In this document: positions 4,799 to 50,697 of the stretch, piece by piece
Numbering within the stretch: position 1 is the stretch's first letter
Layout of the letters: the number at the start of each line of letters is the position of its first letter
Assembly (NCBI GenBank): GCA_016186495.1
Contig: JACPLO010000002.1
Span: 6,857 to 70,856 of the forward strand
Reading direction: 5' to 3'
DNA length: 64,000 bases
Source: Candidatus Niyogibacteria bacterium
GTDB lineage: Bacteria > Patescibacteriota > Minisyncoccia > JACROR01
Translations under genes and position numbers: made by a program
The notes under the pieces: generated by a model
Databases searched by the model: none
What the model was told of the DNA's origin: nothing
Seen by the model: only the letters and a program-made list of their open reading frames with translations

Positions 4799-6007
4799 AT
4801 GCTTTTTAATTATCAAGCCCGCACTCCGCAAGGGGAAATAAAATCAGGCAATATTGACGCCGCTTCCACGGAAGGCGCTCTCGCTTCTCTTCAACGCCGA
4901 AATCTTATCGTGATTTCTTTGGAGTCGGTTGAAAAATCAACGCCTTGGTATAAAAGAGGCATTACTTTGTTTGAACGCGTTAAGATGCGCGATGTGGTTA
5001 TTATTTCCCGCCAGCTTTCCACGCTTTTTGAAGCCAAGGTGCCGGTGGTGGAATCTTTAAAAGTTCTTGTTTCTGAAACCGCCAGTCCGGTTTTAAAGAA
5101 ACGTTTAGCCGCGATTTTGGAAGACATTGAAAGCGGCACTTCTATTTCCGAAGCTTTAGGCAAGTATCCTGAAATTTTTTCAAAATTTTACGTTAATATG
5201 GTTAAATCCGGAGAAGAATCCGGAAAACTAAACGAGGTTTTTTCTTATTTAGCCGATTATCTGGAACGTTCATATGATTTGACCGTTAAAGCCAGAAACG
5301 CTTTTATTTATCCGGCTTTCGTTTTAACGGTTTTTACGGTCGTGATGATTTTAATGTTGGTTATGGTGATTCCGCGGCTTTCAACTATTCTGACCGAAAC
5401 CGGCCAATCCCTTCCTTTTTACACAAAAATTATTATCGCTTTCAGCAATTTTTTAAGAAATTTCGGCATTTTACTTTTAGTTTTTTTGGCAATCGGCGTT
5501 ATTTTTCTCTGGCGCTATCTTCAGACCGGCGCGGGTAAAATGGCTTTTTCCCGTTTTCAACTGTCTATTCCGATTGCCGGTGAGCTTTATAAAAAATTTT
5601 ATTTGGCAAGAATAGCCGATAATCTGCAAACTCTTTTGGCGAGCGGGGTTCCCGTGGTGCGCGCTTTGGAAATTACTTCCGATGTGGTGGGCAACGAAGT
5701 TTACGCGGAAATTTTAAAAGAAACTATTTCTATGGTTAAATCCGGCAGTCCGATTTCCGAGGCGTTTTCTCGTTATGAAGAAGTTCCTTTATTGATTTCC
5801 CAATCCGTAAAAATCGGCGAAGAAACCGGCAAGCTGGATTTTATTTTAAGCACAATGGCGCGTTTTTACCGCCGGGAAGTGGATAATGCTGTAGATAATA
5901 TCGTCAGTTTAATTGAGCCGGTGATGATCGTGCTTTTAGGTTTGGGAGTCGGCGTTTTGGTGGCTGCGATTCTTGTTCCAATTTATAACATTTCAACGGG
6001 ATTCTAA
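4799..6007 (+). CDS. pilC: Type IV pilus platform protein PilC/GspF
   Basis: Two GspF-type repeats, three TM segments, 402 aa. Confidence 0.88.
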   Translation: MLFNYQARTPQGEIKSGNIDAASTEGALASLQRRNLIVISLESVEKSTPWYKRGITLFERVKMRDVVIISRQLSTLFEAKVPVVESLKVLVSETASPVLKKRLAAILEDIESGTSISEALGKYPEIFSKFYVNMVKSGEESGKLNEVFSYLADYLERSYDLTVKARNAFIYPAFVLTVFTVVMILMLVMVIPRLSTILTETGQSLPFYTKIIIAFSNFLRNFGILLLVFLAIGVIFLWRYLQTGAGKMAFSRFQLSIPIAGELYKKFYLARIADNLQTLLASGVPVVRALEITSDVVGNEVYAEILKETISMVKSGSPISEAFSRYEEVPLLISQSVKIGEETGKLDFILSTMARFYRREVDNAVDNIVSLIEPVMIVLLGLGVGVLVAAILVPIYNISTGF

Positions 6008-6682: not shown

Positions 6683-7491
6683 TTTGTATTTGGCGGATAA
6701 CAAGTTATTATTTAATTATGGCGGGGATTTTAATTTTTATTTTAGGACTAATCATGGGCAGTTTTCTAAATGTGGTCATCTTTCGGCTGAATACCGGAGA
6801 ATCCGTTGCGAAGGGGCGTTCCCGATGTTTTGCCTGCGGCGCGGAGCTGAAGTGGTTTGAACTTATTCCGATTTTTAGTTTTTTGGTTCAAGCCGGCCGC
6901 TGTCGGGCCTGCCAAAGCAGAATATCTCGGCAATATCCGGCCGTGGAGCTGGCCGTGGCTTTGATTTTTTACGCTTTATATTTAAAATGGCTGGTAATTT
7001 GGCCGCCGAATATTCCGGTGTTTATCTGGTGGCTGGTTTTCTGGTCAATTTTTTTGACGCTGGCGGTTTATGATTTTCATCATAAAATTTTGCCTGATAT
7101 TTTAGTTTATCCTTTAGGAATTATCGCGGTTTTGGGCGGAGCGGTTTTTTTTAAAAAAGATTTTTGGCCGGCTTTGGCGATCGGCGTTTTATTTTTCTTG
7201 TTTTTTGCCGGCCTTTGGCTGGTTTCCAGAGGAAAATGGATGGGGCTGGGGGATGCTAAATTATTTTTCAGCGTCGGCGTTTTTTTAGGCTGGCCTTTGG
7301 CGCTGGTGGCGATGTTTTTTTCTTTTTGGCTTGGCGCTATAATAAGCGGTATCATAGTTATTTTAAAAAGGTCGTTAAATTTAAAAAGCGAGATCCCTTT
7401 CGGCCCTTTTATTTTTTTGGGAGCAATAATTGCTTTTTTCTGGGGGGATCTTGTATTTTCTTGGTATTTAAAAATAATTTTTAACGTATGA
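6679..7491 (+). CDS. pilD: Prepilin leader peptidase / N-methyltransferase PilD (peptidase A24)
   Basis: CxxC...CxxC zinc-finger region (CFACGAEL...CRACQSRI), multiple TM helices, 270 aa. Confidence 0.85.
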   Translation: MFCIWRITSYYLIMAGILIFILGLIMGSFLNVVIFRLNTGESVAKGRSRCFACGAELKWFELIPIFSFLVQAGRCRACQSRISRQYPAVELAVALIFYALYLKWLVIWPPNIPVFIWWLVFWSIFLTLAVYDFHHKILPDILVYPLGIIAVLGGAVFFKKDFWPALAIGVLFFLFFAGLWLVSRGKWMGLGDAKLFFSVGVFLGWPLALVAMFFSFWLGAIISGIIVILKRSLNLKSEIPFGPFIFLGAIIAFFWGDLVFSWYLKIIFNV

Positions 7492-7492
7492 A

Positions 7493-7570
7493 CCCCGTTA
7501 GAAATCTTCATAAATAAGGTTTCAAGCGGGGAAATGATTATGCAAAACAAAAAACAAATTTCTAACGGAG
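7493..7570. repeat. Palindromic repeat unit: ccccgttagaaat...atttctaacggag
   Basis: Inverted copies of the window-wide 9-mer. They flank the start of the 7534 CDS directly after the pilD stop. Confidence 0.7.
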
Positions 7571-9235: not shown

Positions 9236-9892
9236 ATGGCTGAAGATTTTAAATTTAAAAAATTAAGGCGCGGGTCGCGGTTTCTAACGGGGTTTACCCC
9301 AGTTAAATCTTTCGCTTCGCGAAATTTAACGGGGTTTACCCCGTTAAATAGTTGCGAAGCAAATTTAACGGGGTTTACTCTGCTGGAGATGATTGTGTCT
9401 TTGGGAGTTTTTTCCGCGGCGATTTTGATTATTTTAGGGGCTATTTTGTCCATTAATGACGCTCAAAAGAAAATGATTAATATTCAGGCCGTTGAAGATA
9501 ATTTGCGTTTCGCTTTGGACGCAATGTCCAGAGAGATTCGGACCGGATCTGTCTATAATTGCGAAGGAGGAGGTTCGGCGTCCGATTGTCCGGCCGGATC
9601 GCCAATTTTCGCTTTTGATTCCATCAGCGGGGGAAGGATTATTTATCGTTGGAACAGCGTTAATAAAAGCATTGAAGAATCGGAAGACAATGGCTCAACT
9701 TATTATCCGATAACCGGCAACGATCTGAAAATAGAAAAATTAACTTTTTATGTTTTTGGAACAAGAACGATTGATTTTAAACAGCCGCGAGTGACAATGA
9801 TTATAAAAGCATTTGCCGGAGAAGAAAGAGTTAAAACTCGCTCGGAATTCAATATTCAAACCACGGTTACGCAAAGAGAATTAGATTCATAA
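9236..9892 (+). CDS. Minor pilin, PilW/GspJ-like, with triplicated leader
   Basis: Mature end GFTLLEMIVSLGVFSAAILIIL. The N-terminal extension contains three LTGFT repeats encoded by tandem palindromic repeats. Confidence 0.65.
   Translation: MAEDFKFKKLRRGSRFLTGFTPVKSFASRNLTGFTPLNSCEANLTGFTLLEMIVSLGVFSAAILIILGAILSINDAQKKMINIQAVEDNLRFALDAMSREIRTGSVYNCEGGGSASDCPAGSPIFAFDSISGGRIIYRWNSVNKSIEESEDNGSTYYPITGNDLKIEKLTFYVFGTRTIDFKQPRVTMIIKAFAGEERVKTRSEFNIQTTVTQRELDS
9284..9378. repeat. Tandem palindromic repeat array (taacgggg-ttta-cccc(a)gttaaat x3)
   Basis: Three nested hairpin units of the TAACGGGG family inside the 5' end of the PilW-like ORF. Confidence 0.75.
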
Positions 9893-16469: not shown

Positions 16470-17435
16470 ATGAAGATATTTATTACGAGGAAAATTCCCG
16501 AAGCGGGAATTAAAAAGCTCGCGGAAAAACACGAGATTAAAATCAGTCCGCATGATCGCGTTTTATCAAAAGAAGAATTGATTGCCGCGCTGAAAAATCA
16601 GGGATACGGCGCGGTGCTTTGCCTTTTAACCGATAAAATTGATGACGATGTTTTAGAAGCGGCCGGCAAGCAATGCCGGATTTTCGCCAATTTTGCCGTG
16701 GGTTTTGATAATATTGATCTGGTTGCGGCCAAAAAACGGGGCATAATAATTACCAATACGCCGGGAGTTTTAACGGACACCGTGGCAGAGCATACTTTTA
16801 CTTTGATGCTGGCGATTTCCCATCGGATTGCCGAAGCGGATAAATTCACCAAAACCGGAAAATACGAGGGCTGGGCGCCGATGCTTTTATTGGGAAATGA
16901 TTTATCAAGAAAAACTGTCGGCATTGTGGGTTTGGGGCGGATTGGCTCGCGCGTGGCCCATCACGCGGCTAAAGGATTTGACGCGCGCGTGATTTATCAC
17001 GACCTTCAGCGCAATAAAGAATTTGAGAAAGAATTTAACGCGGAATACAGGGAAAAATTGGAAGATTTATTGAAAGAGGCGGATTATGTTTCTCTGCATG
17101 TGCCGCTTTTGCCGGCCACGCGGCATTTGCTGAACGCCGAGCGGCTGAAATTAATGAAGCCGACCGCATATCTTATAAATACTTCGCGCGGGCCGGTGAT
17201 AGACGAAAAAGCGTTAGTGGAAGCGCTGCACGCCAAAATTATCAAAGGCGCGGCTTTGGATGTTTTTGAAAACGAACCGGCGTTAGCCGAAGGATTGGCA
17301 AAACTTGATAACGCAATTTTGACGCCGCATATCGCTTCCGCCACCGAAGAAACGCGCGGCAAAATGGCGGAATTGGCGGTAGATAACATTATTGCTGCTT
17401 TAGAAGGGCGGACACCTCCTAATTTAGTGGGGTAA
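16470..17435 (+). CDS. D-isomer-specific 2-hydroxyacid dehydrogenase (glycerate DH / hydroxypyruvate reductase family)
   Basis: GLGRIGSRVA NAD-binding motif with catalytic R/E/H context. The track ORF starts at TTG 16437 inside the tRNA, so the real start is probably ATG 16470. Confidence 0.82.
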   Translation: MKIFITRKIPEAGIKKLAEKHEIKISPHDRVLSKEELIAALKNQGYGAVLCLLTDKIDDDVLEAAGKQCRIFANFAVGFDNIDLVAAKKRGIIITNTPGVLTDTVAEHTFTLMLAISHRIAEADKFTKTGKYEGWAPMLLLGNDLSRKTVGIVGLGRIGSRVAHHAAKGFDARVIYHDLQRNKEFEKEFNAEYREKLEDLLKEADYVSLHVPLLPATRHLLNAERLKLMKPTAYLINTSRGPVIDEKALVEALHAKIIKGAALDVFENEPALAEGLAKLDNAILTPHIASATEETRGKMAELAVDNIIAALEGRTPPNLVG

Positions 17436-17491
17436 ACCCCGTTAGAAATCGCGAACGCAATGTTCGCGTTCTATTTCTAACGGGGTAAAAC
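17429..17491. repeat. Long palindromic repeat: ggggtaaaccccgttagaaat-cgcgaacgcaatgttcgcg-atttctaacggggtaaaac
   Basis: Near-perfect 60-bp hairpin built from the family 9-mer. The stop codon of the upstream gene lies inside it. Confidence 0.8.
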
Positions 17492-25264: not shown

Positions 25265-26707
25265 ATGTTTTTTAGAAAATTTCAAACTTTTGTTTTAATT
25301 TTTATTTTTATAACGGGCGCTTTTTTAAGCGTCCGTTCCGCGTTTTCTCAAAGCCAAACCGTTGACCCCGTTAGAGGTAAGATTCCGGAGGAATCTGCCG
25401 GTTTGCCGTTAGCAAATCGGACCTCTAACGGGGTTGATCCGGCCGCGATTTTGGAACAACGGGCTAAACTGCTGGAAGAAGAAAAGGAAGTGGAAGAACA
25501 GATTGGCGGATTGATGGTTATTATTCAAAATAAACAAGGGGAAACCGCCAGTTTGGAGCGCGATATCGCCATTATTAACGCCGAGATTAAAAAAGCAAAA
25601 CTGGCCATTAAAGCCAGAACTCTGACGATTGATAATCTTAATTCATCAATCGGAGAAAAATCTAAATTTATTGTTAAACTTTTAGACAAACAAGAGCGCG
25701 AAAAAGAATCTTTAGCCGAGCTTTTGCGGCAATTGAATGAATTTGGAGACACCACTTTAGTGGAGATTATTTTGGGTTATGAAAATCTTTCCGATTTTTT
25801 CGTGAATATGGATTCTTTGGATTTTCTTCAAAAATTCATTCAGGATTCTTTTGACGAAATTAAAATAACAAAAGAGAATACTGAAGAAGAGAAGTCTATT
25901 CTGGAAGAAAAAAAGAAAGAAGAATCAGAACTCCGTTATTTGCAGGAGCTTGAGAAAAAAAGAACTGAAGAAAGAGAAAAAGAAAAGAAAAAGATTTTAG
26001 AAATTACGCGCGGCGAAGAAAATGAATACCAAAAGCTTTTGGCCAGTCGGAAGAAAGATATTGCTCAAATCAGAAATCAACTTTTTATTTTGCGTGGTTC
26101 GGACGCCATTCCTTTTGAAAAAGCCATTGAATACGCCAATATCTCATTTAAGGCAACAGGCGTGCGCCCAGCTTTTCTTTTGGGAATAATTGCCGAAGAA
26201 TCCGAATTGGGCGCTAATTTAGGGTCCGGAAATTGGAAAACTGACATGTACGATTGTTATCGCCGAATCGGCTACAATAAGTCGGCGGAAAAACAAAAAA
26301 CCGCTTTTTTAGCGATTATTTCAGAATTATTTATTGACAGTCCTGATTCAAGGCCGGTTTCCAAAGCGCCGTATTACGGCTGCGGCGGAGCCATGGGGCC
26401 GGCGCAGTTTATGCCCGCTACTTGGTGGGATCCGGTTGGCAATACGGGATATAAAAAATTGATCGCTCAATATACCGGCCATAATCCTCCGGACCCGTGG
26501 AGTCCGGAAGACGCTTTTATGGCCGCGGCGCTTTTGCTTAAAGACAACGGCGCGGCGGCCGGAGGATTTACCGCGGAACGCCGGGCAGCTTTAAGATATT
26601 TAGCCGGCGGCAATTGGAATAAGCCGGCTTACGCTTTTTACGGCGACGACGTGATGGCTTTGGCTAAAAAATATCAAGATCAGATTGATATTTTAACGGA
26701 ATCTTAA
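25265..26707 (+). CDS. Secreted coiled-coil protein with C-terminal lytic-transglycosylase (SLT/lysozyme-like) domain
   Basis: Signal/TM, long coiled coil, then EESELG (catalytic E-S) and [13 protein letters not shown] motifs. The track ORF 25022 is a 5' over-extension. Confidence 0.55.
25365..25434. repeat. Palindromic repeat inserted in-frame in CDS (accccgttagaggt...acctctaacggggt)
   Basis: 14-bp perfect inverted repeats 42 bp apart. It encodes DPVRG...TSNGVDP in the linker of the transglycosylase protein. Confidence 0.8.
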
Positions 26708-27827: not shown

Positions 27828-28691
27828 TTGCAAAAACACAAGACTTCGTTTATGATATTATTTATGGTTGTAACTGACCAAGAAAATCAAAATAAAAATG
27901 AAAATAATAATTTGGCTGTCATTCAAAGCGAAGAAAAATCAGATTTAACCGCCAAAGGGCAGGAAACCGCGGTTTTAGCCGAATCCGCCATTCCCGAACG
28001 CTTTGATCAAGAGCTGGAAAAAATGTTTAAAGCCGGCGTGCATTTCGGCTATTCGCGAAGCCGGCGGCATCCTAAAATGACGCCTTATATTTTCGGTTTG
28101 CGGAACAACGCGGAAGTTTTTGATTTGGAAAAAATAAAAGTGAAACTGAAAGAAGCTTCGGCTTTTATCCGAGAGTTGGGAAAAGAGAAGAAAACCGTTG
28201 TCTTAGTGGGAACTAAACCGGCTATTCGCGATATCGTGGAAAAGGCGGCGCGAGAAGCCGGCCTGCCTTATGTGAATGAACGCTGGTTGGGCGGTTTTAT
28301 CACTAATTTTCCCGTCATCAGGAAAAGAATGGATTATTATGAGAATTTAAAAAATGAAAAAGAAAGCGGCGGCCTGGAAAAATACACCAAAAAGGAACGT
28401 TTGGAAATCGCGAAAGAATTAGCGGTACTGGGAAGAAATTTTGACAGTTTGCTGGCGTTAAAAAAACTTCCCGACGCTCTTTTAATTGTTGATCCTGAAA
28501 ATGAAAAAACAGCCGCCAAAGAAGCGGCGGATAAAAAAATTCCCGTGGTCGCTATTTTGAATAGCGACAGCAATCCGGAAAATATTTCTTATCCTATTCC
28601 GGCCAATGACGCTTCCCGGGCGAGCGTGGATTATTTATTGTCAAAAATTACCGAGGCTTATCAAGAAATTACCGATGCGCCGAAGACATGA
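27828..28691 (+). CDS. rpsB: 30S ribosomal protein S2 (with N-terminal extension or later start)
   Basis: MFKAGVHFGYSRSRRHPKM is the S2 signature. The conserved core starts ~55 codons into the ORF. Confidence 0.85.
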   Translation: MQKHKTSFMILFMVVTDQENQNKNENNNLAVIQSEEKSDLTAKGQETAVLAESAIPERFDQELEKMFKAGVHFGYSRSRRHPKMTPYIFGLRNNAEVFDLEKIKVKLKEASAFIRELGKEKKTVVLVGTKPAIRDIVEKAAREAGLPYVNERWLGGFITNFPVIRKRMDYYENLKNEKESGGLEKYTKKERLEIAKELAVLGRNFDSLLALKKLPDALLIVDPENEKTAAKEAADKKIPVVAILNSDSNPENISYPIPANDASRASVDYLLSKITEAYQEITDAPKT

Positions 28692-28732
28692 AGGCAATAA
28701 GGAAAAAAAGCAAAAAATTCTGATAAAAAAAT

Positions 28733-28862
28733 GAATCCCGTTAGAGATTAAAGACTTTATTTTTTAACGGAATTTAAAAATATCTTTAATAATGATAATT
28801 AGAAATTATAAGAATAATTTACGGAAATGATTAAAATCATTTCCTATCTCTAACGGGATGAA
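28733..28862. repeat. 130-bp palindromic element, copy A (TIR atcccgttagagat / atctctaacgggat)
   Basis: About 90% identical to copies at 43461 and 50474. It has an internal perfect hairpin, ggaaatgatt-aaaa-tcatttcc. The tsf ATG at 28858 lies in the right TIR. Confidence 0.9.
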
Positions 28863-29900: not shown

Positions 29901-29918
29901 CCCGCCCCGTTAGAAATG
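29901..29918. repeat. Left 18-bp inverted repeat ccccgttagaaatgccga flanking tRNA-Thr
   Basis: Exact reverse complement of 29993-30010. Confidence 0.85.
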
Positions 29919-29989
29919 CCGACGTAGCTCAGTGGTAGAGCAACGGTTTTGTAAACCGTAGGTCGTGGGTTCAAATCCCTCCGTCGGCT
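29918..29989 (+). tRNA. tRNA-Thr (TGT)
   Basis: Hand fold: acceptor GCCGACG/CGTCGGC, D-stem GCTC/GAGC, anticodon stem ACGGT/ACCGT with loop TTTGTAA, T-loop TTCAAAT. 72 nt. Confidence 0.8.
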
Positions 29990-29992
29990 CAT

Positions 29993-30010
29993 CGGCATTT
30001 CTAACGGGGT
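29993..30010. repeat. Right 18-bp inverted repeat tcggcatttctaacgggg flanking tRNA-Thr
   Basis: Exact reverse complement of 29901-29918. Confidence 0.85.
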
Positions 30011-30015
30011 AAACA

Positions 30016-30048
30016 GGTTGGAGGTTCGAATCTTCTCCTCGACTCCAA
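30016..30048 (+). pseudogene. tRNA-like 3' half (variable loop, T-arm, acceptor, encoded CCA)
   Basis: AGGTT-GGAGG-TTCGAAT-CTTCT-CCTCGAC-T-CCA. The T-stem pairs with two G-U wobbles. The acceptor is complementary to the 5' half at 29867. Confidence 0.45.
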
Positions 30049-30109
30049 GATTAGATTTTTTACAATCATAATTCATGCGGCTTGCTTATTTATCAATGGA
30101 GATTAAAAA

Positions 30110-30877
30110 ATGTTAATATTATGTTATGAAAGTTGTTCTGCTAACGTTCAAGTCCTCATGAAAAAACCGCGGCACATTATTTATCATTCACGGATACATC
30201 TTTTAATAACTATCGGAATAATTTTTATTCCTTTTGTTTTTCTTTTACTCTTTTCGCAATATGCAAAAATTAGCACCGCGAAGCTCTTCGCCAATCTTTT
30301 TGTTTCTTTCTTAAGACTGCTCGCCGCATATCTTATCGCGGCTGTACTTGCTTGGACGAGCGCAGTCTTACTTTATCGGGGGCGGCGAGCTCTTGTCGCG
30401 CTTCCTATTTTTGATGTCTTGCAGAGTTTTCCGACTTTCGCGGCCTTGCCGCTCGCAGTTTATCTCTGGGGGCCGTCAGCAATAACCGTTATCGTATTTT
30501 TAATTTTGACTATTATCTGGCCGATTTTTTTCTCGCTTATCAGTTCTTTAAAGCTTATGCGTAAAGATTGGGAAGAAGCCGCGGCCATTGCGGGACTTCG
30601 CGGTTTTGATTATCTTCGCCGGTTTCTCTGGCCAATCAGCCTTCCCGGCCTTATCACCGGGTCAATTATTGGCCTGGGCGAAGGATGGGAAGCTTTGGTT
30701 GCCACGGAAATAATCGTAGCGGCGCGGACCGGACTCGGCAGTTTTTTCTCTCTCTATGCTCAAGACACCTTCATAACTGTGTTTGGAATAATTGGGCTTC
30801 TTCTCTTTATATTCAGCGTTAATAAAATATTTTGGCTTCCGCTTCTTGAGCGAAGCCATCGTTTGATGGAAGAATAA
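30110..30877 (+). CDS. ABC transporter permease (NitT/TauT-type)
   Basis: 6 TM helices and the EAA-like loop (EEAAAIAGL). Confidence 0.8.
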   Translation: MLILCYESCSANVQVLMKKPRHIIYHSRIHLLITIGIIFIPFVFLLLFSQYAKISTAKLFANLFVSFLRLLAAYLIAAVLAWTSAVLLYRGRRALVALPIFDVLQSFPTFAALPLAVYLWGPSAITVIVFLILTIIWPIFFSLISSLKLMRKDWEEAAAIAGLRGFDYLRRFLWPISLPGLITGSIIGLGEGWEALVATEIIVAARTGLGSFFSLYAQDTFITVFGIIGLLLFIFSVNKIFWLPLLERSHRLMEE

Positions 30878-30890
30878 ATGGAAGAATAAT

Positions 30891-31475
30891 ATGAACTCGA
30901 TTATCTTTTCATATCTTACACATTGGCGAAGTTTGGGGTATGCGCTTGTATTTATCGGGATGATAATTGAAGGAGACATTATTTTGTTTACTTCTTCGTT
31001 TCTTGCGCATCAAGGTTTTTTTAATATCGGCGATTTAATGTTCTTTGCATTGGCCGGCGTATTAATAGGAGATTTACTGTGGTATTTGCTCGGCTGCCTG
31101 ATGGATAATCATATTAATAATAATTCCAATTTATCTTTTGTAGCCCGCTGGATAGCAAGAATCGCGAAGCCGCTTGACGCTCATCTTCTTAATCGTTCAT
31201 ACCGCACTATTTTTATTTCAAAATTTGCATTCGGCTTTCATCATGCGCTCTTAACGCGTTTAGGCATGCTTCGCTTTTCTTGGAAAAAATTTATTAAAAT
31301 TGATTTTATTTCCGCTGTGCCTTGGATGATTATAGTCGGCGGGCTCGGATATTTTTCTGGAGCAGCTTTTTTTGCTTCAAAACATTATCTTCGGTTAGCG
31401 GAAACAGGATTATTAATTACGCTTGTTCTTTTTCTTGCTATTGAACATTTCGTAATAAAGAAACTGAAACTTTGA
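30891..31475 (+). CDS. DedA/VTT-family membrane protein
   Basis: IGMIIEGDIILF...G motif region and a multi-TM topology. Confidence 0.55.
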   Translation: MNSIIFSYLTHWRSLGYALVFIGMIIEGDIILFTSSFLAHQGFFNIGDLMFFALAGVLIGDLLWYLLGCLMDNHINNNSNLSFVARWIARIAKPLDAHLLNRSYRTIFISKFAFGFHHALLTRLGMLRFSWKKFIKIDFISAVPWMIIVGGLGYFSGAAFFASKHYLRLAETGLLITLVLFLAIEHFVIKKLKL

Positions 31476-31476
31476 T

Positions 31477-32238
31477 ATGAATCCTACGCTCATTTTAAAA
31501 AATATTTCAAAAAATTTTCAGGAAGATCGCGGGCAGAAACTCCCTGTGCTTAAAGGCATTGATCTTGAAATAGCCGCTGGAGAATTTTTCATAATCCTCG
31601 GGCCCTCGGGGTCAGGCAAGTCAACGCTTCTTCGCATTATGAGCGGCCTTGAATCGGAGTATGAAGGAAAAATCGGATACGGCAGCGGCATTACGCCGTC
31701 TGATTTCAGCTTTGTATTTCAGCAATTTGCGCTCTTCCCGTGGCTTACCGTATTTGAAAATATCGCCATCGGGCTCCGAGCGCGGCATACGCCGGAAAAC
31801 ATTATTAAAGAACGGGTAGAAAATGAACTCAAACGGTTTAATCTAAAGCATTTTGCCGATTCTTTCCCAAAAGAATTATCGGGAGGGATGAAACAGCGCG
31901 TTGGCATCGCCCGGGCATTAACAACCGATCCTAAGATTATTTTTATGGACGAACCATTCTCGGAGCTTGATTCTTTCACCGCTGAAGAGCTTCGCAAAGA
32001 ATTTTCGCATATTTGGAAAGGGCGCCAGCTTGTTGAAGCTGGCGCCCGCCAAACCATTATTATGGTGACCCATCTCATAGAGGAAGCGCTGGAGCTTGCT
32101 GACAGAATCGCCGTGCTTACCCCGCGGCCCGGAAAAATAGAAAGGATTATTACGAACACTCTCGCCAAGCCGCGCAATAAACGATCTCCGGAATTCTTTT
32201 GCCTTGAAGATGAGATTTATAAATTAATAAGGCCGTAA
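31477..32238 (+). CDS. ABC transporter ATP-binding protein
   Basis: Walker A GPSGSGKST, signature LSGGMKQR, and Walker B IIFMDEP. Confidence 0.88.
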   Translation: MNPTLILKNISKNFQEDRGQKLPVLKGIDLEIAAGEFFIILGPSGSGKSTLLRIMSGLESEYEGKIGYGSGITPSDFSFVFQQFALFPWLTVFENIAIGLRARHTPENIIKERVENELKRFNLKHFADSFPKELSGGMKQRVGIARALTTDPKIIFMDEPFSELDSFTAEELRKEFSHIWKGRQLVEAGARQTIIMVTHLIEEALELADRIAVLTPRPGKIERIITNTLAKPRNKRSPEFFCLEDEIYKLIRP

Positions 32239-32250
32239 ATTCCGTAATTT

Positions 32251-32934
32251 ATGAAAAAATACATAATTTCAGCCATAATTTTAATTTTGGGCTTAAGCGC
32301 GTATTATTTTATTTATCAGCTAAAAATCGGAGATAATAATATGAAGGAAGCAAACGAAAATTCTAAGGAGGATTTGAATCCCGTTAAAAATAACGAGTTG
32401 AGCGATGTTGAGAATAGCGCCGCGAAACAGCGTAAAATTTCTAACGGGATGAATCCGCGCGCGACGCTGGAAACGAGCATGGGTAATATTACGATAGAAC
32501 TTTATCCTAAAGATGCGCCGAAAACCGTGGCTAATTTTATCGGTTTAGCTAAAAAAGGATATTATAACGGCGTTATTTTTCATCGGGTGGTAAGCGGTTT
32601 TGTCATTCAGGGAGGCGATCCGACCGGCACGGGCGCCGGCGGCAATTCCATTTACGGCGGCGATTTTGAAGACGAACTTGATTTAAATACGGAAAGTTAT
32701 CAGCGCGGATATTTAAAAGGCGCGGTCGCGATGGCTAATCGCGGGCCTGACACTAATTCCAGCCAATTTTTTATTATGCTTGAAGATAAATCTTTGCCTA
32801 AGCTTTACACTATTTTCGGCAAAGTGGCGGAAGGAGATGATGTCGTCCAAAATATCGGCCGGGTGAAAGTAGGCGCTAATGACAAGCCATTGGCGCCGGT
32901 TATCATAAATAAAATTATTGTTGAAGGAAATTAG
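32251..32934 (+). CDS. Peptidyl-prolyl cis-trans isomerase (cyclophilin type), membrane-anchored
   Basis: GYYNGVIFHRVV...GGDPTGTGAGG cyclophilin core, with an N-terminal TM. Confidence 0.88.
   Translation: MKKYIISAIILILGLSAYYFIYQLKIGDNNMKEANENSKEDLNPVKNNELSDVENSAAKQRKISNGMNPRATLETSMGNITIELYPKDAPKTVANFIGLAKKGYYNGVIFHRVVSGFVIQGGDPTGTGAGGNSIYGGDFEDELDLNTESYQRGYLKGAVAMANRGPDTNSSQFFIMLEDKSLPKLYTIFGKVAEGDDVVQNIGRVKVGANDKPLAPVIINKIIVEGN
32375..32456. repeat. Palindromic repeat inserted in-frame in cyclophilin linker (ttgaatcccgttaaaaat...aatttctaacgggatgaat)
   Basis: The ends match the 130-bp element termini. It encodes NPVKNN...ISNGMNP between the TM anchor and the PPIase domain. Confidence 0.8.
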
Positions 32935-33014
32935 TCTTATTTCTAACGGGATTGATTTATTTTTTTTATAATGATATTTTTTAAATAAATAAGTTCATTT
33001 ATATCGGAGGCGAT

Positions 33015-33717: not shown

Positions 33718-34992
33718 ATGACAACTTCTAACGGGGTAAAACAAAATATCGTTATTTTGGGAGCGGGGTTTGCCGGCGTGAGAGCGGCTTTGGATTTAGC
33801 CAGATACCTGCCTTCGGAAGCGAAAATTACCCTGATTGACCGGAATTCTTTCCATTCATACACGCCGGCTTATTACGAAGTGGCGGCCGCTTTTTTGCCG
33901 GAAAAAGAAGAGCTTTCCCGGGAACAATTTGAATTATTGGCTTCAACCGCCGCCATTCCTCTTAAAACTATTTTTGAAAAATATAAAAATGTGGAATTGG
34001 CAATCGGCGAAGTGGCGGATATTTTGCCTGAAAAAAATCAGATTGAGATAAAATCGGGCGGAAAATACCGCTATGATTGGCTGATCATCGCTTTGGGAAG
34101 CGAACAAGATTATTTCGGGTTATCGGAGATCAAAAAATATGTTTATACTTTAAAAAGCCTGGAAGGCGCGCTTAATTTGCGGAACGGCATTGATGAATTA
34201 TTTTGGCGCCGGGCTAAGCATGAAAAAATAAAAATAATAGTGGCGGGCGGCGGATTTTTGGGAAGCGAGATAGCGGCCGAACTTGCCGGTTATGTCAAAA
34301 AACTTAATCGCCAACATTCTCGGCCAAAAGAAAATTGCGAAATAAGCATTATTGAAGGAGGACAGAATGTTTTAGGAAACGCCAGCGAATGGGCGCGGAA
34401 AAAAGCGGCCGGCCGGTTGGAAAAATTGGGCGTAAAAATTTCAACAAACAGTTTAATCAGCAAAGTAACCGAAGAAAAATTGATTTTGAAAGACGGCCAA
34501 ACTGTTTCTTATGATATTTTAATTTGGACAGTCGGCGTTCGGGCTTGCGCGATTACCGGCCAACTGGTCGGCCAAGGGCAAGAATTAAAGGGCAAAGGAT
34601 GCCTGGCCGTTGACCGATATTTGCGCGTCATTCCCTATGAAAATATTTTTGCCGCCGGAGATATTGCTTACGCGTCCGATTACGAAATAAATACTTTTAT
34701 GCCGATGACCGCTCAAGTCGCTATTCTTCACGGCCAATATATCGCTTACACGATAAAAAGAATGATTCGCAAACGCCGCCCGTTCCCTTATTGGCCGCAC
34801 CAAAATAGATTTAGCATCGCGCTTGGCGGAAAATACGCGCTTTTTGACGGAAAGCGGTTTAAATTCTCCGGTTTTTTCGCCTGGCTTTTGAAACATTTGA
34901 CGACTTTAAAATATTTCGCGGGCATTCTTCCTTTTTATCGCGCTTTTTTTATCTGGCAACGGGGTTTTAAGATATATAAAGATAACGATTAA
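33718..34992 (+). CDS. FAD-dependent pyridine nucleotide-disulfide oxidoreductase (NDH-2-like)
   Basis: N-terminal IVILGAGFAGV and a second IIVAGGGFLGSE dinucleotide fold. The start codon region ATGACAACTTCTAACGGGGT is a repeat half-site encoding MTTSNGV. Confidence 0.7.
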   Translation: MTTSNGVKQNIVILGAGFAGVRAALDLARYLPSEAKITLIDRNSFHSYTPAYYEVAAAFLPEKEELSREQFELLASTAAIPLKTIFEKYKNVELAIGEVADILPEKNQIEIKSGGKYRYDWLIIALGSEQDYFGLSEIKKYVYTLKSLEGALNLRNGIDELFWRRAKHEKIKIIVAGGGFLGSEIAAELAGYVKKLNRQHSRPKENCEISIIEGGQNVLGNASEWARKKAAGRLEKLGVKISTNSLISKVTEEKLILKDGQTVSYDILIWTVGVRACAITGQLVGQGQELKGKGCLAVDRYLRVIPYENIFAAGDIAYASDYEINTFMPMTAQVAILHGQYIAYTIKRMIRKRRPFPYWPHQNRFSIALGGKYALFDGKRFKFSGFFAWLLKHLTTLKYFAGILPFYRAFFIWQRGFKIYKDND

Positions 34993-37088: not shown

Positions 37089-37433
37089 ATGGAACAAAAA
37101 ATAAATCCCGTTAAAAGTTTTATAGCAAAAAAAGTATTAACTAAAAAGAAAGCCGAAGGCGAATTTGTCGACAAAAGTATGGATAACGACAAGCTCGGCA
37201 GAACTTCTAACGGGATAAAAAAAATTTTAGAAACTGAAATCGCGCCGATGCTCGCGATGCATGGCGGAAGAGTGGAATTTGTCAGTTTTGAAGAGGGGAC
37301 GGTAAAAATTCGGCTTAAAGGCGCTTGCCATGGCTGCGCGCTTTCCGAATTAACCTTGAAAGAAGGCGTGGAAAGAATTCTTAAAGAAAAAATCCGCAAA
37401 ATAAAAAGCGTGGAAAATGTTGAACCCCGTTAG
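37089..37433 (+). CDS. NifU C-terminal-domain (Nfu-type) Fe-S carrier with repeat-encoded N-terminal extension
   Basis: MHGGRVEFVSFEEGTVKIRLKGACHGC CxxC motif. The first ~42 codons are encoded by a palindromic repeat. Confidence 0.78.
   Translation: MEQKINPVKSFIAKKVLTKKKAEGEFVDKSMDNDKLGRTSNGIKKILETEIAPMLAMHGGRVEFVSFEEGTVKIRLKGACHGCALSELTLKEGVERILKEKIRKIKSVENVEPR
37103..37216. repeat. Palindromic repeat in-frame at 5' end of nfu (aaatcccgttaaaagtt...aacttctaacgggat)
   Basis: 15-bp inverted repeats ~100 bp apart. It encodes NPVKSF...RTSNGIKK. Confidence 0.8.
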
Positions 37434-37537
37434 AAGTTCAACCATGCTTTATTATATTAAAATCAAAAGTAAGCAAAGTCGCCTAACGGCTCACTTTAAT
37501 GTAAATTTTTATTATTATGACAACTTCTAATGGGGTG
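37422..37537. repeat. Palindromic repeat spanning nfu stop to nifS2 start (gaaccccgttagaagtt...aacttctaatggggtg)
   Basis: The left arm contains the nfu TAG stop. The right arm overlaps the nifS2 ATGACAACTTCTAATGGGGTG start. Confidence 0.8.
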
Positions 37538-43460: not shown

Positions 43461-43595
43461 AATGAATCCCGTTAGAGATTAAAACCTTTATTTTTTAACG
43501 GAATTTAAAAATAACATCAATGAAAATAATTAGAATTACAAGAATAATTCACGGAAATGATTTTAATCATTTCCTATCTCTAACGGGATGAATTT
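43461..43595. repeat. 130-bp palindromic element, copy B
   Basis: About 90% identical to copies A and C. It sits between the scpA stop and scpB. The scpB ATG at 43588 is inside the right TIR. Confidence 0.9.
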
Positions 43596-44217
43596 ATCCA
43601 ACATTATAGAATCAATTTTGTTTATTTACGGCGAGCCGATGAAAATATCGCGGCTGGCTGAAATTTTAAACAAAAAAGAAAACGAAGTGGAAGAGGCTTT
43701 GGCGGTTTTGGAAAATAATTTAGCGGAACGGGGATTAAAATTAATTAAAAACAACGGCGAAGCAACGCTGGCCACTGTTTCCGAAGCTTCCGAATTTATC
43801 CAAGGGCTTTTAAAAGAAGAATTCAGCGGTAAATTAACCAAAGCGGCTTTAGAAACTTTGGCGATTGTCGCATATTCAGGCCCTTTGCCGCGCGCGGAAA
43901 TTGATTTTATCAGGGGAGTAAATTCTTCTTTCATTTTGCGGAATTTGCTGATCAGCGGGCTGGTGGAAAGGGAAATTAATCCTAAAGACCGGAGAACTTT
44001 TATTTATAAGCCGTCAATGGATTTTTTGCGGTTTTTAGGCCTTAGTAAATTAGAAGATTTGCCGGAATACGGCGAATTTCGGAAAAGTTTGGAAGATTTT
44101 TCGTCCCTCACGCTTAATTTAAACGTGAGGGGCGAAGAAGAAATAAATCCCGTTAGAAGCCGTGATCGCTTTATGAAACAGCCGCAATCTAATGAAAATC
44201 AAAATTCATCAGAATAA
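43588..44217 (+). CDS. scpB: Segregation and condensation protein B
   Basis: Winged-helix ScpB motifs (IESILFIYGEP...), adjacent to scpA. Confidence 0.85.
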   Translation: MNLSNIIESILFIYGEPMKISRLAEILNKKENEVEEALAVLENNLAERGLKLIKNNGEATLATVSEASEFIQGLLKEEFSGKLTKAALETLAIVAYSGPLPRAEIDFIRGVNSSFILRNLLISGLVEREINPKDRRTFIYKPSMDFLRFLGLSKLEDLPEYGEFRKSLEDFSSLTLNLNVRGEEEINPVRSRDRFMKQPQSNENQNSSE

Positions 44218-44268
44218 AATTAAATTTCTATCAGATCGCCGATCACAATCTGCTTCTAACGGGATAAA
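44147..44268. repeat. Palindromic repeat spanning scpB 3' end (aaatcccgttagaagc...gcttctaacgggat)
   Basis: 14-bp inverted repeats ~105 bp apart with an internal gtgatcg/cgatcac inverted repeat. The last ~23 scpB codons (INPVRSRD...) are repeat-encoded. Confidence 0.75.
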
Positions 44269-49779: not shown

Positions 49780-50478
49780 GTGCCTTACCCATTTTTATTG
49801 CAATCCCATATTAAATCCGGCCGATTGGCTCACGGATATTTGTTGATCGGTTCAATTGAACAGGCAAGAAAAATCGCGGCGGAAGCGGCCGGCCGGCTGC
49901 TTGAAAATTTCAATCAAAACCATCCTGATTTTTTTGAATTTTGCGGCGAATCTTTCGGCATCAGCGAGGCGAGAGAGTTAATCAGAAAAACTTATCTGAA
50001 AGCATTCGGCGCCGGCAACAAAAAAATATTTTTTATCGGCGCGGAAACTATAACTTTGGAAGCTGCCAGCGCGCTTTTAAAAACAATGGAAGATTTTTCA
50101 GACGCGGCGCATTTTTTTCTTTCCGTTCTTTCGGAGGAAAATTTGCCGGTTACTCTTTGTTCGCGATTGGTTAAAATCCGGATGGCTTTTGAGCCGGAAG
50201 CGGGCTTCACGGACTATTGGCGGAATTTTGAAAAGAAACCTCATATTGATAAAATGGAATATCTTAAAAAAATAGCGGATAAAAAAGATGAAAAAGAACA
50301 AAAAAAAATTTTGGACGCCCGCGAAATTTATTTTGAAGATATTTTAAAAAATAGCGGCAATGACGAACAGCGAAAAAAATCTTTGGAAAATTTGGAAAAT
50401 CTGGTTTTCGCGAGAGAATTAATGGACGGTCCGGCCGCTTATCCTAAATCTATTTTAGAATATCTGATATTAACATGA
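49780..50478 (+). CDS. DNA polymerase III delta'-like clamp-loader subunit (short)
   Basis: N-terminus HGYLLIGS... resembles HolB, but at 232 aa it is truncated relative to canonical delta'. Confidence 0.5.
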   Translation: MPYPFLLQSHIKSGRLAHGYLLIGSIEQARKIAAEAAGRLLENFNQNHPDFFEFCGESFGISEARELIRKTYLKAFGAGNKKIFFIGAETITLEAASALLKTMEDFSDAAHFFLSVLSEENLPVTLCSRLVKIRMAFEPEAGFTDYWRNFEKKPHIDKMEYLKKIADKKDEKEQKKILDAREIYFEDILKNSGNDEQRKKSLENLENLVFARELMDGPAAYPKSILEYLILT

Positions 50479-50604
50479 ATCCCGTTAGAGATTAAAACCT
50501 TTATTTTTTAACGGAATTTAAAAATATCATCAATGAAGATAATTGGAAATTACAAGAATAATTTACGGAAATGATTTTAATCATTTCCTATCTCTAACAG
50601 GATG
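50474..50604. repeat. 130-bp palindromic element, copy C
   Basis: About 90% identical to copies A and B. The holB-like TGA stop lies in the left TIR (aacATGAatcccg). The right TIR is slightly degenerate (taacagg). Confidence 0.9.
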
Positions 50605-50697
50605 AAATACGCTTTAATTATTATTTTAACATTTTTAATAATTATTTTTGTTGTTTCGGCGATAAGATTGATGATAGGAAATTAGTTTTTATTCAAA

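Follow-up and report, generated by a model that had tools for sequence, protein, structure and literature searches.

Small inverted-repeat elements associated with start codons in a Niyogibacteria genome and in other phyla

Introduction

Correia elements (CREE or NEMIS) of Neisseria are repeats of ~100-155 bp that carry 26-bp terminal inverted repeats (TIRs) and a TA duplication, occur in many copies near genes and are transcribed into long hairpins with reported effects on neighbouring expression. They are confined to Neisseria and are not known to lie systematically on start codons or to reside in frame within genes. The genomes of Patescibacteria are among the smallest and most densely packed known, and mobile DNA is usually said to be scarce in them. 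Here, we analyse 64,000 nucleotides of Candidatus Niyogibacteria bacterium (assembly GCA_016186495.1, contig JACPLO010000002.1, positions 6,857 to 70,856; G+C 41%), referred to as the window, in which three elements of ~123 bp lie at the rpsB/tsf and scpA/scpB gene junctions and at the stop codon of a holB-like gene. These copies make up only a small fraction of a far larger family that spans phyla, is strongly associated with start codons and has ends that are neutral to coding. Its members are very probably miniature inverted-repeat transposable elements (MITEs), defined by the 13-bp TIR YCCCGTTAGARRY.

A preliminary description of this DNA had compared the three copies to Correia elements. 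The functional resemblance holds, as size, the presence of TIRs, a short duplication, hairpin transcripts and gene proximity agree, but neither the Correia TIR sequence nor the TA duplication was found. Compared with the Correia consensus, the present elements differ in their TIR, in a 4-bp TNNA duplication and in their hosts, which are mainly Patescibacteria.

The elements share general MITE features (PMC3184786), and three further repeat types resemble them in part. Rickettsia palindromic elements (RPE) of ~105-146 bp reside in frame in genes and are translated as an extra peptide (PMC3184786, citing Ogata et al. 2000). The palindromic make-up and in-frame residence inside protein genes are common to both, whereas RPE, compared here by description only, are restricted to Rickettsia and not defined by a sharp 13-bp TIR with a 4-bp duplication; the present family, in contrast, is found mostly at start codons and only to ~10% inside open reading frames (ORFs). 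Mycobacterial interspersed repetitive units (MIRU) of 40-100 bp lie between operon genes, overlap stop and start codons with their ends, and have direct repeats of four nucleotides, with orthologous sites that are empty (PMC3184786, citing Supply et al. 1997). The position between operon genes and the overlap with stop and start codons are shared, but MIRU are tandem variable-number repeats with small ORFs and imperfect inverted repeats, unrelated in sequence and from another phylum. Neisseria REP2 repeats, finally, stand directly upstream of ORFs and carry expression signals including an ATG (PMC3184786). REP2 has no TIRs and brings its own promoter, ribosome-binding site and ATG, while the start codons described below are re-formed from a duplicated target. 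The elements belong to none of the Correia, RPE, MIRU or REP/REPIN families; REP/REPIN elements have a GTAG-type head, are linked to a RAYT gene and do not duplicate their target, and membership was rejected since a 4-bp duplication is present. A search of the full-text literature returned no MITEs, palindromic elements or TIRs in the candidate phyla radiation (CPR)/Patescibacteria, nor the motif itself, absence there not being proof of absence, and the family is apparently undescribed so far.

Results

Three related elements with duplicated targets at gene junctions

All element coordinates follow a model of a 13-bp TIR and a 4-bp target-site duplication (TSD). Copy 1 occupies 28736-28858 (+) at the rpsB/tsf junction, with TIRs at 28736-28748 and 28846-28858, a subterminal hairpin at 28817-28838 and the TSD TGAA at 28732-28735 and 28859-28862. 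Copy 2 lies at 43467-43588 (+) between scpA and scpB (TSD TGAA, 43463-43466 and 43589-43592), and copy 3 at 50480-50602 (+) at the holB-like stop codon (TSD TGAA, 50476-50479 and 50603-50606). Pfam assigned rpsB, scpA, scpB, a DNA polymerase III delta'-type holB and frr around the copies; tsf was recognized by homology. The Tsf protein is identical to one from a Candidatus Niyogibacteria metagenome-assembled genome, which assigns this groundwater bacterium to the Patescibacteria (CPR). The copies measure 122-123 bp and are 89.8%, 91.1% and 95.5% identical in pairwise comparison, in agreement with the ~90% first reported, while the left ends given at the time were 2-6 nt off and have been mended. 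Similarity among them breaks off on both sides at a flanking ATGAA, which starts at 28731, 43462 and 50475 on the left, and the direct repeat TGAA surrounds all three. Three independent assemblies from the same species as the window (L001-L003) all contain the rpsB-tsf copy, which is therefore no assembly artefact.

Each copy begins with TCCCGTTAGAGAT and ends with its exact reverse complement, perfect over 13 bp in copies 1 and 2; a single mismatch at the right end of copy 3 (ATCTCTAACAGGATGAA, in the right TIR) is the only departure from the termini originally described. A perfect internal hairpin is indeed found in every copy, with a stem of 9 bp and a loop of 4 nt (GGAAATGAT-NNNN-ATCATTTCC). 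The term "full-length palindromic", however, was an overstatement, as inverted repeats are limited to the 13-14-nt ends and to local hairpins. Folded as RNA, each copy forms one long hairpin closed by the termini, with -30 to -38 kcal/mol and z = -4.4 to -7.0 relative to shuffled sequences. The three copies, which belong to one subfamily, have no coding capacity, their longest internal ORFs spanning a few codons.

The genes next to the elements begin or end at the element boundary. The tsf ATG (28858-28860) consists of the last A of copy 1 and the duplicated TG, the scpB ATG (43588-43590) is located at the right junction of copy 2, and the holB-like TGA (50476-50478) lies inside the left ATGAA, within the left TSD of copy 3. 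All three placements had been noted before, together with the claim that the element donates these codons. The latter has to be revised: the codons pre-exist in the ATGAA target and are re-formed by the TGAA duplication and the terminal A. As empty sites already hold the start and stop codons, the element regenerates rather than donates them.

Empty orthologous sites in relatives

We compared the junctions with those of L004, the closest genome found (Tsf 90% identical), L008 and L010 (67% identity), L134, a JGI contig (ScpB 94% identical), L132, an 85%-identical genome, L138 and L139, two assemblies of an 83%-identical genome, and L135 (Frr 90% identical). The rpsB and tsf genes overlap as TAATGAA in L004 and are 4 bp apart in L008 and L010. 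L134 joins the window's exact scpA and scpB flanks via one ATGAA (...tcattttaaataATGAAtttatccaac..., also given as ...ttttaaataATGAAtttatcc...), and the two genes share the usual ATGA overlap in L132. At the holB junction of L138 and L139, no element precedes ATGAAATACGC. All three junctions are thus element-free in relatives, contradicting the alternative of identical junctions without indel polymorphism throughout. Including further window members, empty orthologous sites were found for seven elements, two of them base-exact in L134, and these sites carry a single copy of the 4-mer.

The terminal motif was absent from the close relatives (85-94% protein identity) in the 11-20 kb sampled per genome. 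With no copies in the sampled sequence of the closest relatives, the family is patchy and recent in the window lineage. In L135, the holB target is filled by a different subfamily member (4845-4961) with variant TIRs; both termini carry the same two changes (CCCGATAGTAGC...GCTACTATCGGG), and the left duplication is imperfect (ATAA versus TGAA).

Two of the junctions show additional changes. Behind copy 3, ATG 50602 opens a 28-codon ORF (50602-50688; MKYALIIILTFLIIIFVVSAIRLMIGN*), the N-terminal remnant of a gene for a ~343-aa BNR-repeat protein; L135 and L138 carry this gene whole between holB and frr, and the remainder is deleted in the window. Ahead of copy 1 (28640-28735), rpsB stops at 28691 while another frame (EGNKEKKQKILIKK) runs on to the TGA of the left-edge ATGAA. 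In relatives, the S2 protein has a lysine-rich tail and its gene ends overlapping tsf, which suggests that rpsB was truncated by a frameshift in the window lineage.

Target duplication and start-codon placement across the family

We scanned one genome per GTDB species (596 Gb) for paired termini with a 39-99-nt spacer. The pattern occurred in at least 120 genome stretches, against a chance estimate, by our own arithmetic, of a handful to a few tens; all family-wide counts given here rest on the matches listed from these stretches. The same TIR was present in 141 elements from other genomes. Among these 141 elements with usable flanks, 97 showed identical 4-mers on both sides, comprising 19 different sequences with the consensus T-N-N-A (T in 91/97 at position 1, A in 88/97 at position 4). 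Pairs such as TGAG/TGAG indicate that all four bases are duplicated.

The start-codon placement seen in the window recurs in other genomes. Flanks of at least 400 nt were available for 120 elements, and in 56 of these the terminal purine and the duplicated TG form an ATG, GTG or TTG that opens an ORF of at least 80 codons, compared with a background rate at ~120,000 TNNA sites of the same loci of 4.1% under a permissive and 0.6% under a strict true-start test. In 14 of the 120, the upstream ORF additionally stops in the left duplication or at the TAG of the left terminus, with the downstream start at the right junction. Clustering of the 70 downstream proteins gave 66 groups; the genes are hence unrelated and the insertions independent. 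This also rules out that recurrent duplications (for example, TGGA) represent one inherited orthologous site.

Both element ends are neutral towards translation in one frame. As read from the sequence, the left end, xTG-AAY-CCC-GTT-AGA, is open in the frame encoding N-P-V-R, and the other two frames are stopped by TGA or TAA in the duplication or by TAG in the terminus. At the right end, TCT-AAC-GGG-RTG is open and encodes S-N-G-M/V in the frame of the regenerated start codon, while one other frame meets a TAA. The left and right open frames are in register when the element length plus 4 is a multiple of three. This is the case for 9 out of 10 in-ORF copies of other genomes and for all three in-gene elements of the window (72, 75 and 114 nt).

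A subfamily with an oriented hairpin end

The architecture of the window copies is common to 30 elements of ~115-123 nt from many lineages, in the order left terminus, A+T-rich interior, TAAnnT-like hexamer, AC, hairpin with a GG...CC foot, T and right terminus. In an alignment of this set (A3), terminus positions 10-12 and six out of seven hairpin pairs change on both sides and stay paired, with 98.4% of cells paired versus 39-51% when the partner was slid by 1-3 columns. The hairpin percentage is inflated because admission to the set required a perfect stem of 5 bp or more at this position and R/Y terminus classes; stem diversity and the complementarity at terminus positions 10-12 are unaffected by this ascertainment. 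The end carrying the hairpin or extended arm (CCT-RYY-TCTAACGGG) adjoins the start codon in roughly 35 of 40 start-associated elements of at least ~112 nt by hand count, and a cruder, automated test of the hairpin side gave 15 same-side versus 6 opposite-side cases. This orientation bias may reflect either oriented target choice or selection for expression signals.

It is possible, if doubtful, that these MITEs are kept at start codons as mobile 5' expression cassettes, the hairpin end supplying a promoter or leader, or the long transcribed hairpin preserving translational coupling by drawing the upstream stop close to the downstream start. Position and orientation would then be due to function and not simply to a lack of harm. 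Besides the orientation of the hairpin end, a -10-like TAAnnT located 2-3 nt upstream of the hairpin in the 30 elements, the covariation of the stem and the 14 elements that link an upstream stop to a downstream start are compatible with such a role. Yet, the promoter-like match of copy 1 is weak (9/12), no Shine-Dalgarno sequence precedes the junction ATG although the organism uses GGAGG elsewhere, and many members reside in ORFs or at stop codons, where the role cannot apply. Moreover, oriented target choice could yield the same bias equally well.

Further family members in the window

The preliminary count of three elements was too low. The terminal 14-mer occurs 16 times in the 64-kb window at up to two mismatches, as compared to 0.42 expected occurrences, and the window contains at least ten full elements, one inverted repeat flanking a transfer RNA (tRNA) gene and three solo ends with the same termini. 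Seven further full elements share the termini and a 4-bp flanking repeat with the junction copies, while their interiors are unrelated. With sizes of 49-123 bp and ten full copies per 64 kb, the family accounts for ~1.1 kb or 1.7% of the window, and its TSDs read TGAA, TAAA or TTGA. Strands are given below in brackets, with a dot where none was assigned.

Three members reside in frame within genes. A 68-bp element (25366-25433 (.), TSD TTGA) adds 68 + 4 = 72 nt, that is, 24 codons, to the gene of an SLT_2-domain protein, and three SLT_2 orthologues lack exactly this 24-residue peptide. In the same line, a 71-bp element (32379-32449 (.), TSD TGAA) contributes 71 + 4 = 75 nt or 25 codons to a cyclophilin-type peptidyl-prolyl isomerase (PPIase) gene, and the corresponding 25 residues are missing from the L004 orthologue. 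The third, of 110 bp (37106-37215 (.), TSD TAAA; 110 + 4 = 114 nt, 38 codons), is inserted near the N-terminus of a NifU-like protein, which comprises 114 aa in the window versus 80 aa in the L010 orthologue; L132 holds the exact empty site (ATGgaacagaaaaTAAAaaaaatttta).

The remaining four full elements are located at gene ends. A 111-bp member (37425-37535 (+), TSD TGAA) split an overlapping junction between the NifU-like gene and a cysteine-desulfurase-type aminotransferase gene. The NifU-like gene now ends at the TAG of the left TIR, and the aminotransferase starts at either the element-borne ATG 37517 or the junction GTG 37535, with the N-terminus MTTSNGV; in the empty site of L132, gaaaatgtTGAAcaaaacg (gtTGAAcaaa), the called start is the TTG of TTGAA. 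At the 3' end of scpB, a 117-bp member (44148-44264 (.), TSD TAAA) is read into by ScpB, extending the protein to 209 aa versus 184-186 aa in relatives, and its empty site is base-exact in L134 (gaagaaaTAAAtaataaag). A 78-bp member (7493-7570 (+), TSD TGAA) with a degenerate right TIR lies between a prepilin peptidase gene, whose TGA stop (7489-7491) falls inside the left TSD, and a DUF4430 gene; GTG 7570 and ATG 7534 share one frame through its right TIR. The smallest member is a minimal hairpin of 49 bp (17437-17485 (.); TSD TAAA, 17433-17436 and 17486-17489), with the TAA stop of the upstream ORF in the TSD.

Solo ends occur at three positions. An 18-nt right-end remnant (33721-33738 (+); ACAACTTCTAACGGGGTA) forms six codons (TTSNGV) after the ATG of a Pyr_redox_2 gene (33718), giving this protein the same prefix, MTTSNGV, as the aminotransferase; the L132 orthologue starts ATGAAACAAAAT and has no insert. 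A second terminal repeat (32939-32952 (-)) stands just past the PPIase stop codon, and a terminus-like sequence, TTTCTAACGGGGTTTACCCC (9283-9296), lies within the first 20 codons of ORF 9236-9892, with no partner found.

An atypical relative encloses tRNA-Thr(TGT) (29905-30009 (+)) in a perfect inverted repeat of 18 bp, made up of the family TIR in the outer 13 nt, followed by GCCGA, the first five bases of the tRNA. It has no TSD and is the only tRNA-enclosing case among 146 elements. The orthologous tRNA in L004 has no inverted repeat, but is preceded by TTAGAAAT, matching the inner part of the terminus.

Two neighbouring differences from relatives involve other sequence. Between tRNA-Thr and the PPIase gene, the window holds ~2.3 kb (30010-32250) in excess of L004, encoding an ABC permease-like BPD_transp_1 protein, a VTT-domain protein and an ABC ATPase; just past tRNA-Thr (~30017-30050), the sequence resembles the 3' part of another tRNA (GGTTCGAAT...CCA), possibly left over from an integration at a tRNA. 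Within scpB, towards its 3' end, a 29-nt palindromic segment (44104-44132; TCCCTCACG-N11-CGTGAGGGG) takes the place of 5 nt in L134, a net in-frame gain of 24 nt, and may be a different or degenerate small hairpin insert.

Distribution across genomes

The matches listed derive mostly from Patescibacteria, with some in Omnitrophota, Planctomycetota, Deltaproteobacteria and a few more. CPR lineages named in the record titles include Saccharibacteria, Nomura-, Kaiser-, Wolfe-, Kerfeld-, Doudna-, Berkel-, Moran- and Lloydbacteria, among others. Scanning metagenomes with the left half of the 123-bp subfamily returned no match, while the hairpin end matched one contig. In L145 (763-968), an element with the window-type hairpin separates rpoA from rplQ: rpoA ends at a TGA within the left duplication, and the ATG of rplQ is found at the right junction. 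Nested inside this element is a second family member, 78 nt long and with its own TSD (TCCA).

Three family members (L140, L142 and L143) lie on a Mu-like phage contig, IMGVR_UViG_3300038429_000794, which encodes a capsid protein and a MuA-type transposase. This suggests carriage by Mu-like phages as one route between hosts. One stretch in L140 contains two minimal units of ~27-29 nt, consisting of little beyond two termini. In L034, two inverted 92-nt copies (2167-2258 and 4942-5033; TSDs TAAA and TTTA) flank the gene of a 693-aa Ig-like-domain protein; the arrangement resembles a composite transposon, but more probably represents two separate insertions.

Discussion

The elements combine TIRs, TSDs that vary from copy to copy, small size, multiple copies, the absence of a transposase gene, and filled as well as empty sites, and the TIRs, the 4-bp duplication and the empty sites support the MITE-like nature proposed initially. 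The following sequence of events would account for these features. A transposase acting in trans would bind both element ends, cut a T-N-N-A target with a stagger of 4 nt and place the element there, after which gap repair would duplicate 4 bp. The terminal purine and the duplicated TG would then re-form an ATG or GTG start for the downstream gene, while two of the frames arriving from upstream would be stopped by the TGA or TAA of the duplication and by the TAG within CCCGTTAGA. The third frame would be open through both ends (NPVR...SNG followed by M or V), so that an element could reside within a gene and be translated if its length plus 4 is divisible by three. As insertions at gene boundaries or in frame would do little harm, copies in a compact genome would persist mostly at start or stop codons or in frame.

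The enzyme may be an IS1380/piggyBac-like DDE transposase, which is our best guess and a lead rather than a result. IS1380-family elements and eukaryotic piggyBac make 4-5-bp duplications of the T..A type (TCGA-like for IS1380, TTAA for piggyBac) and have ends that start with CC or CCC, and the TIRs of piggyBac measure 13 bp. The CC(C) ends, the 13-bp TIR and the 4-bp T..A duplication of the present family would suit such enzymes, which points to where to look and does not amount to a relationship.

Several observations weigh against transposition of this kind. We searched ~0.9 Mb of flanks for an autonomous element, that is, TIR pairs 300-7000 bp apart with matching duplications or an enclosed large ORF, and found no long TIR-bounded element with a matching duplication; the candidate pairs were only chance pairings of separate MITEs. 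Likewise, phmmer with the transposase of ISEcp1 (IS1380 family, from plasmid pCTX-M3) matched none of 2,561 ORFs of at least 100 aa around the copies, a weak negative given the single query sequence. Between 10 and 12 TIR positions are identical across distant phyla, which is unusual for a simple transposase-binding end, and the inner TIR positions covary, as does the subterminal hairpin. The covariation could instead indicate a mechanism that depends on structure and works on RNA or on DNA in single-stranded form. The repeat around the tRNA shows no duplication. Finally, an A precedes the left repeat in 40 of 57 T...A elements, and some exact empty sites fit duplications of 5 or 6 bp equally well; because the outer bases often mimic the terminal base pair, the cut geometry (4-6 bp) is not entirely settled, and 4 bp represents the minimal consistent model.

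As an alternative, the elements could be REPIN- or HUH-type hairpins, moved as single-stranded DNA by a domesticated Y1 transposase (RAYT or IS200/IS605-like) that recognizes the subterminal hairpin. The hairpin shows covariation above a conserved foot (GG...CC, with AC and T on either side), minimal members are little more than a hairpin, and no transposase was linked to any copy in the flanks searched. However, IS200/IS605 and REPIN elements are not known to have TSDs or TIRs. The perfect, copy-varying 4-bp duplications of the 97 elements and the single 4-mer at empty sites therefore make this origin improbable.

Vertical inheritance, with the elements acting as a cis-regulatory RNA, a terminator or processing stem, or a motif of the DNA-uptake type in inverted pairs, would explain the very stable RNA hairpins, the solo occurrences of the motif and the pair that flanks a tRNA like a processing stem. 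It is very unlikely and essentially refuted by the seven empty orthologous sites with base-exact joints, which also dispose of the DNA-uptake-sequence reading. In addition, the duplications vary between copies, the downstream genes are unrelated, and the scanned region contains a single strict terminator-like tail, which lies outside any element. Rfam reported only three tRNAs at gathering score in the window and nothing better than E ~1 on copy 1, and relaxed thresholds gave no family match either.

We give equally little credence to the idea that the elements are intervening sequences, spliced out or bypassed by the ribosome between identical 4-mers as in phage T4 gene 60 or the mitochondrial 'byp' elements, so that in-ORF copies would stay untranslated. 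Identical take-off and landing 4-mers do flank a stable hairpin, but such a process needs no length rule, yet 9/10 in-ORF copies elsewhere and 3/3 in the window obey the multiple of three and are stop-free in the host frame; no ribozyme or intron family matched. Integron attC sites, which have outer RYYYAAC ... GTTRRRY boxes in that order and lie beside gene cassettes, were rejected as well, as the box order is reversed here (CCCGTTAGA...TCTAACGGG) and the neighbours are core genes (rpsB, tsf, scpAB).

The insertions with their duplications and empty sites, the in-frame copies, the placement on start codons and the broad distribution are shown; the transposase was not found in the flanks searched, and the mechanism is in part inferred. 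The hairpins may influence expression of tsf and scpB, and start-codon placement could stem from target choice or from survival. As a bolder and rather speculative extension of the MITE interpretation, the elements could form a single new MITE superfamily across much of the CPR and other phyla, with machinery that actively targets start codons (NTG-RA), ends that have evolved to be invisible to translation, and maybe a portable 5' cassette rewiring operon coupling in the most gene-dense of bacterial genomes.

MITEs as such are known; apparently new here is a cross-phylum family that combines start-codon association with coding-neutral ends. The elements affect genome analysis in several ways, as they shift called starts and create spurious N- or C-terminal extensions in the annotation of metagenome-assembled genomes, and are likely break points in short-read assemblies. 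As strains with 94% protein identity can be told apart by whether they carry the elements, these could also serve as population markers, and the conserved 13-bp end offers a handle for tracing the responsible transposase. In a group usually regarded as poor in mobile DNA, the family has reshaped the ends of several core genes (tsf, scpB, nifU and the cysteine-desulfurase-type aminotransferase gene) and adds peptides of 24-38 residues inside proteins. Of the copies sampled, almost half lie exactly at a start codon. If the cause is target choice, such a specificity of integration would be unusual; if it is survival, the copies would provide a natural experiment on which insertions a streamlined genome tolerates.

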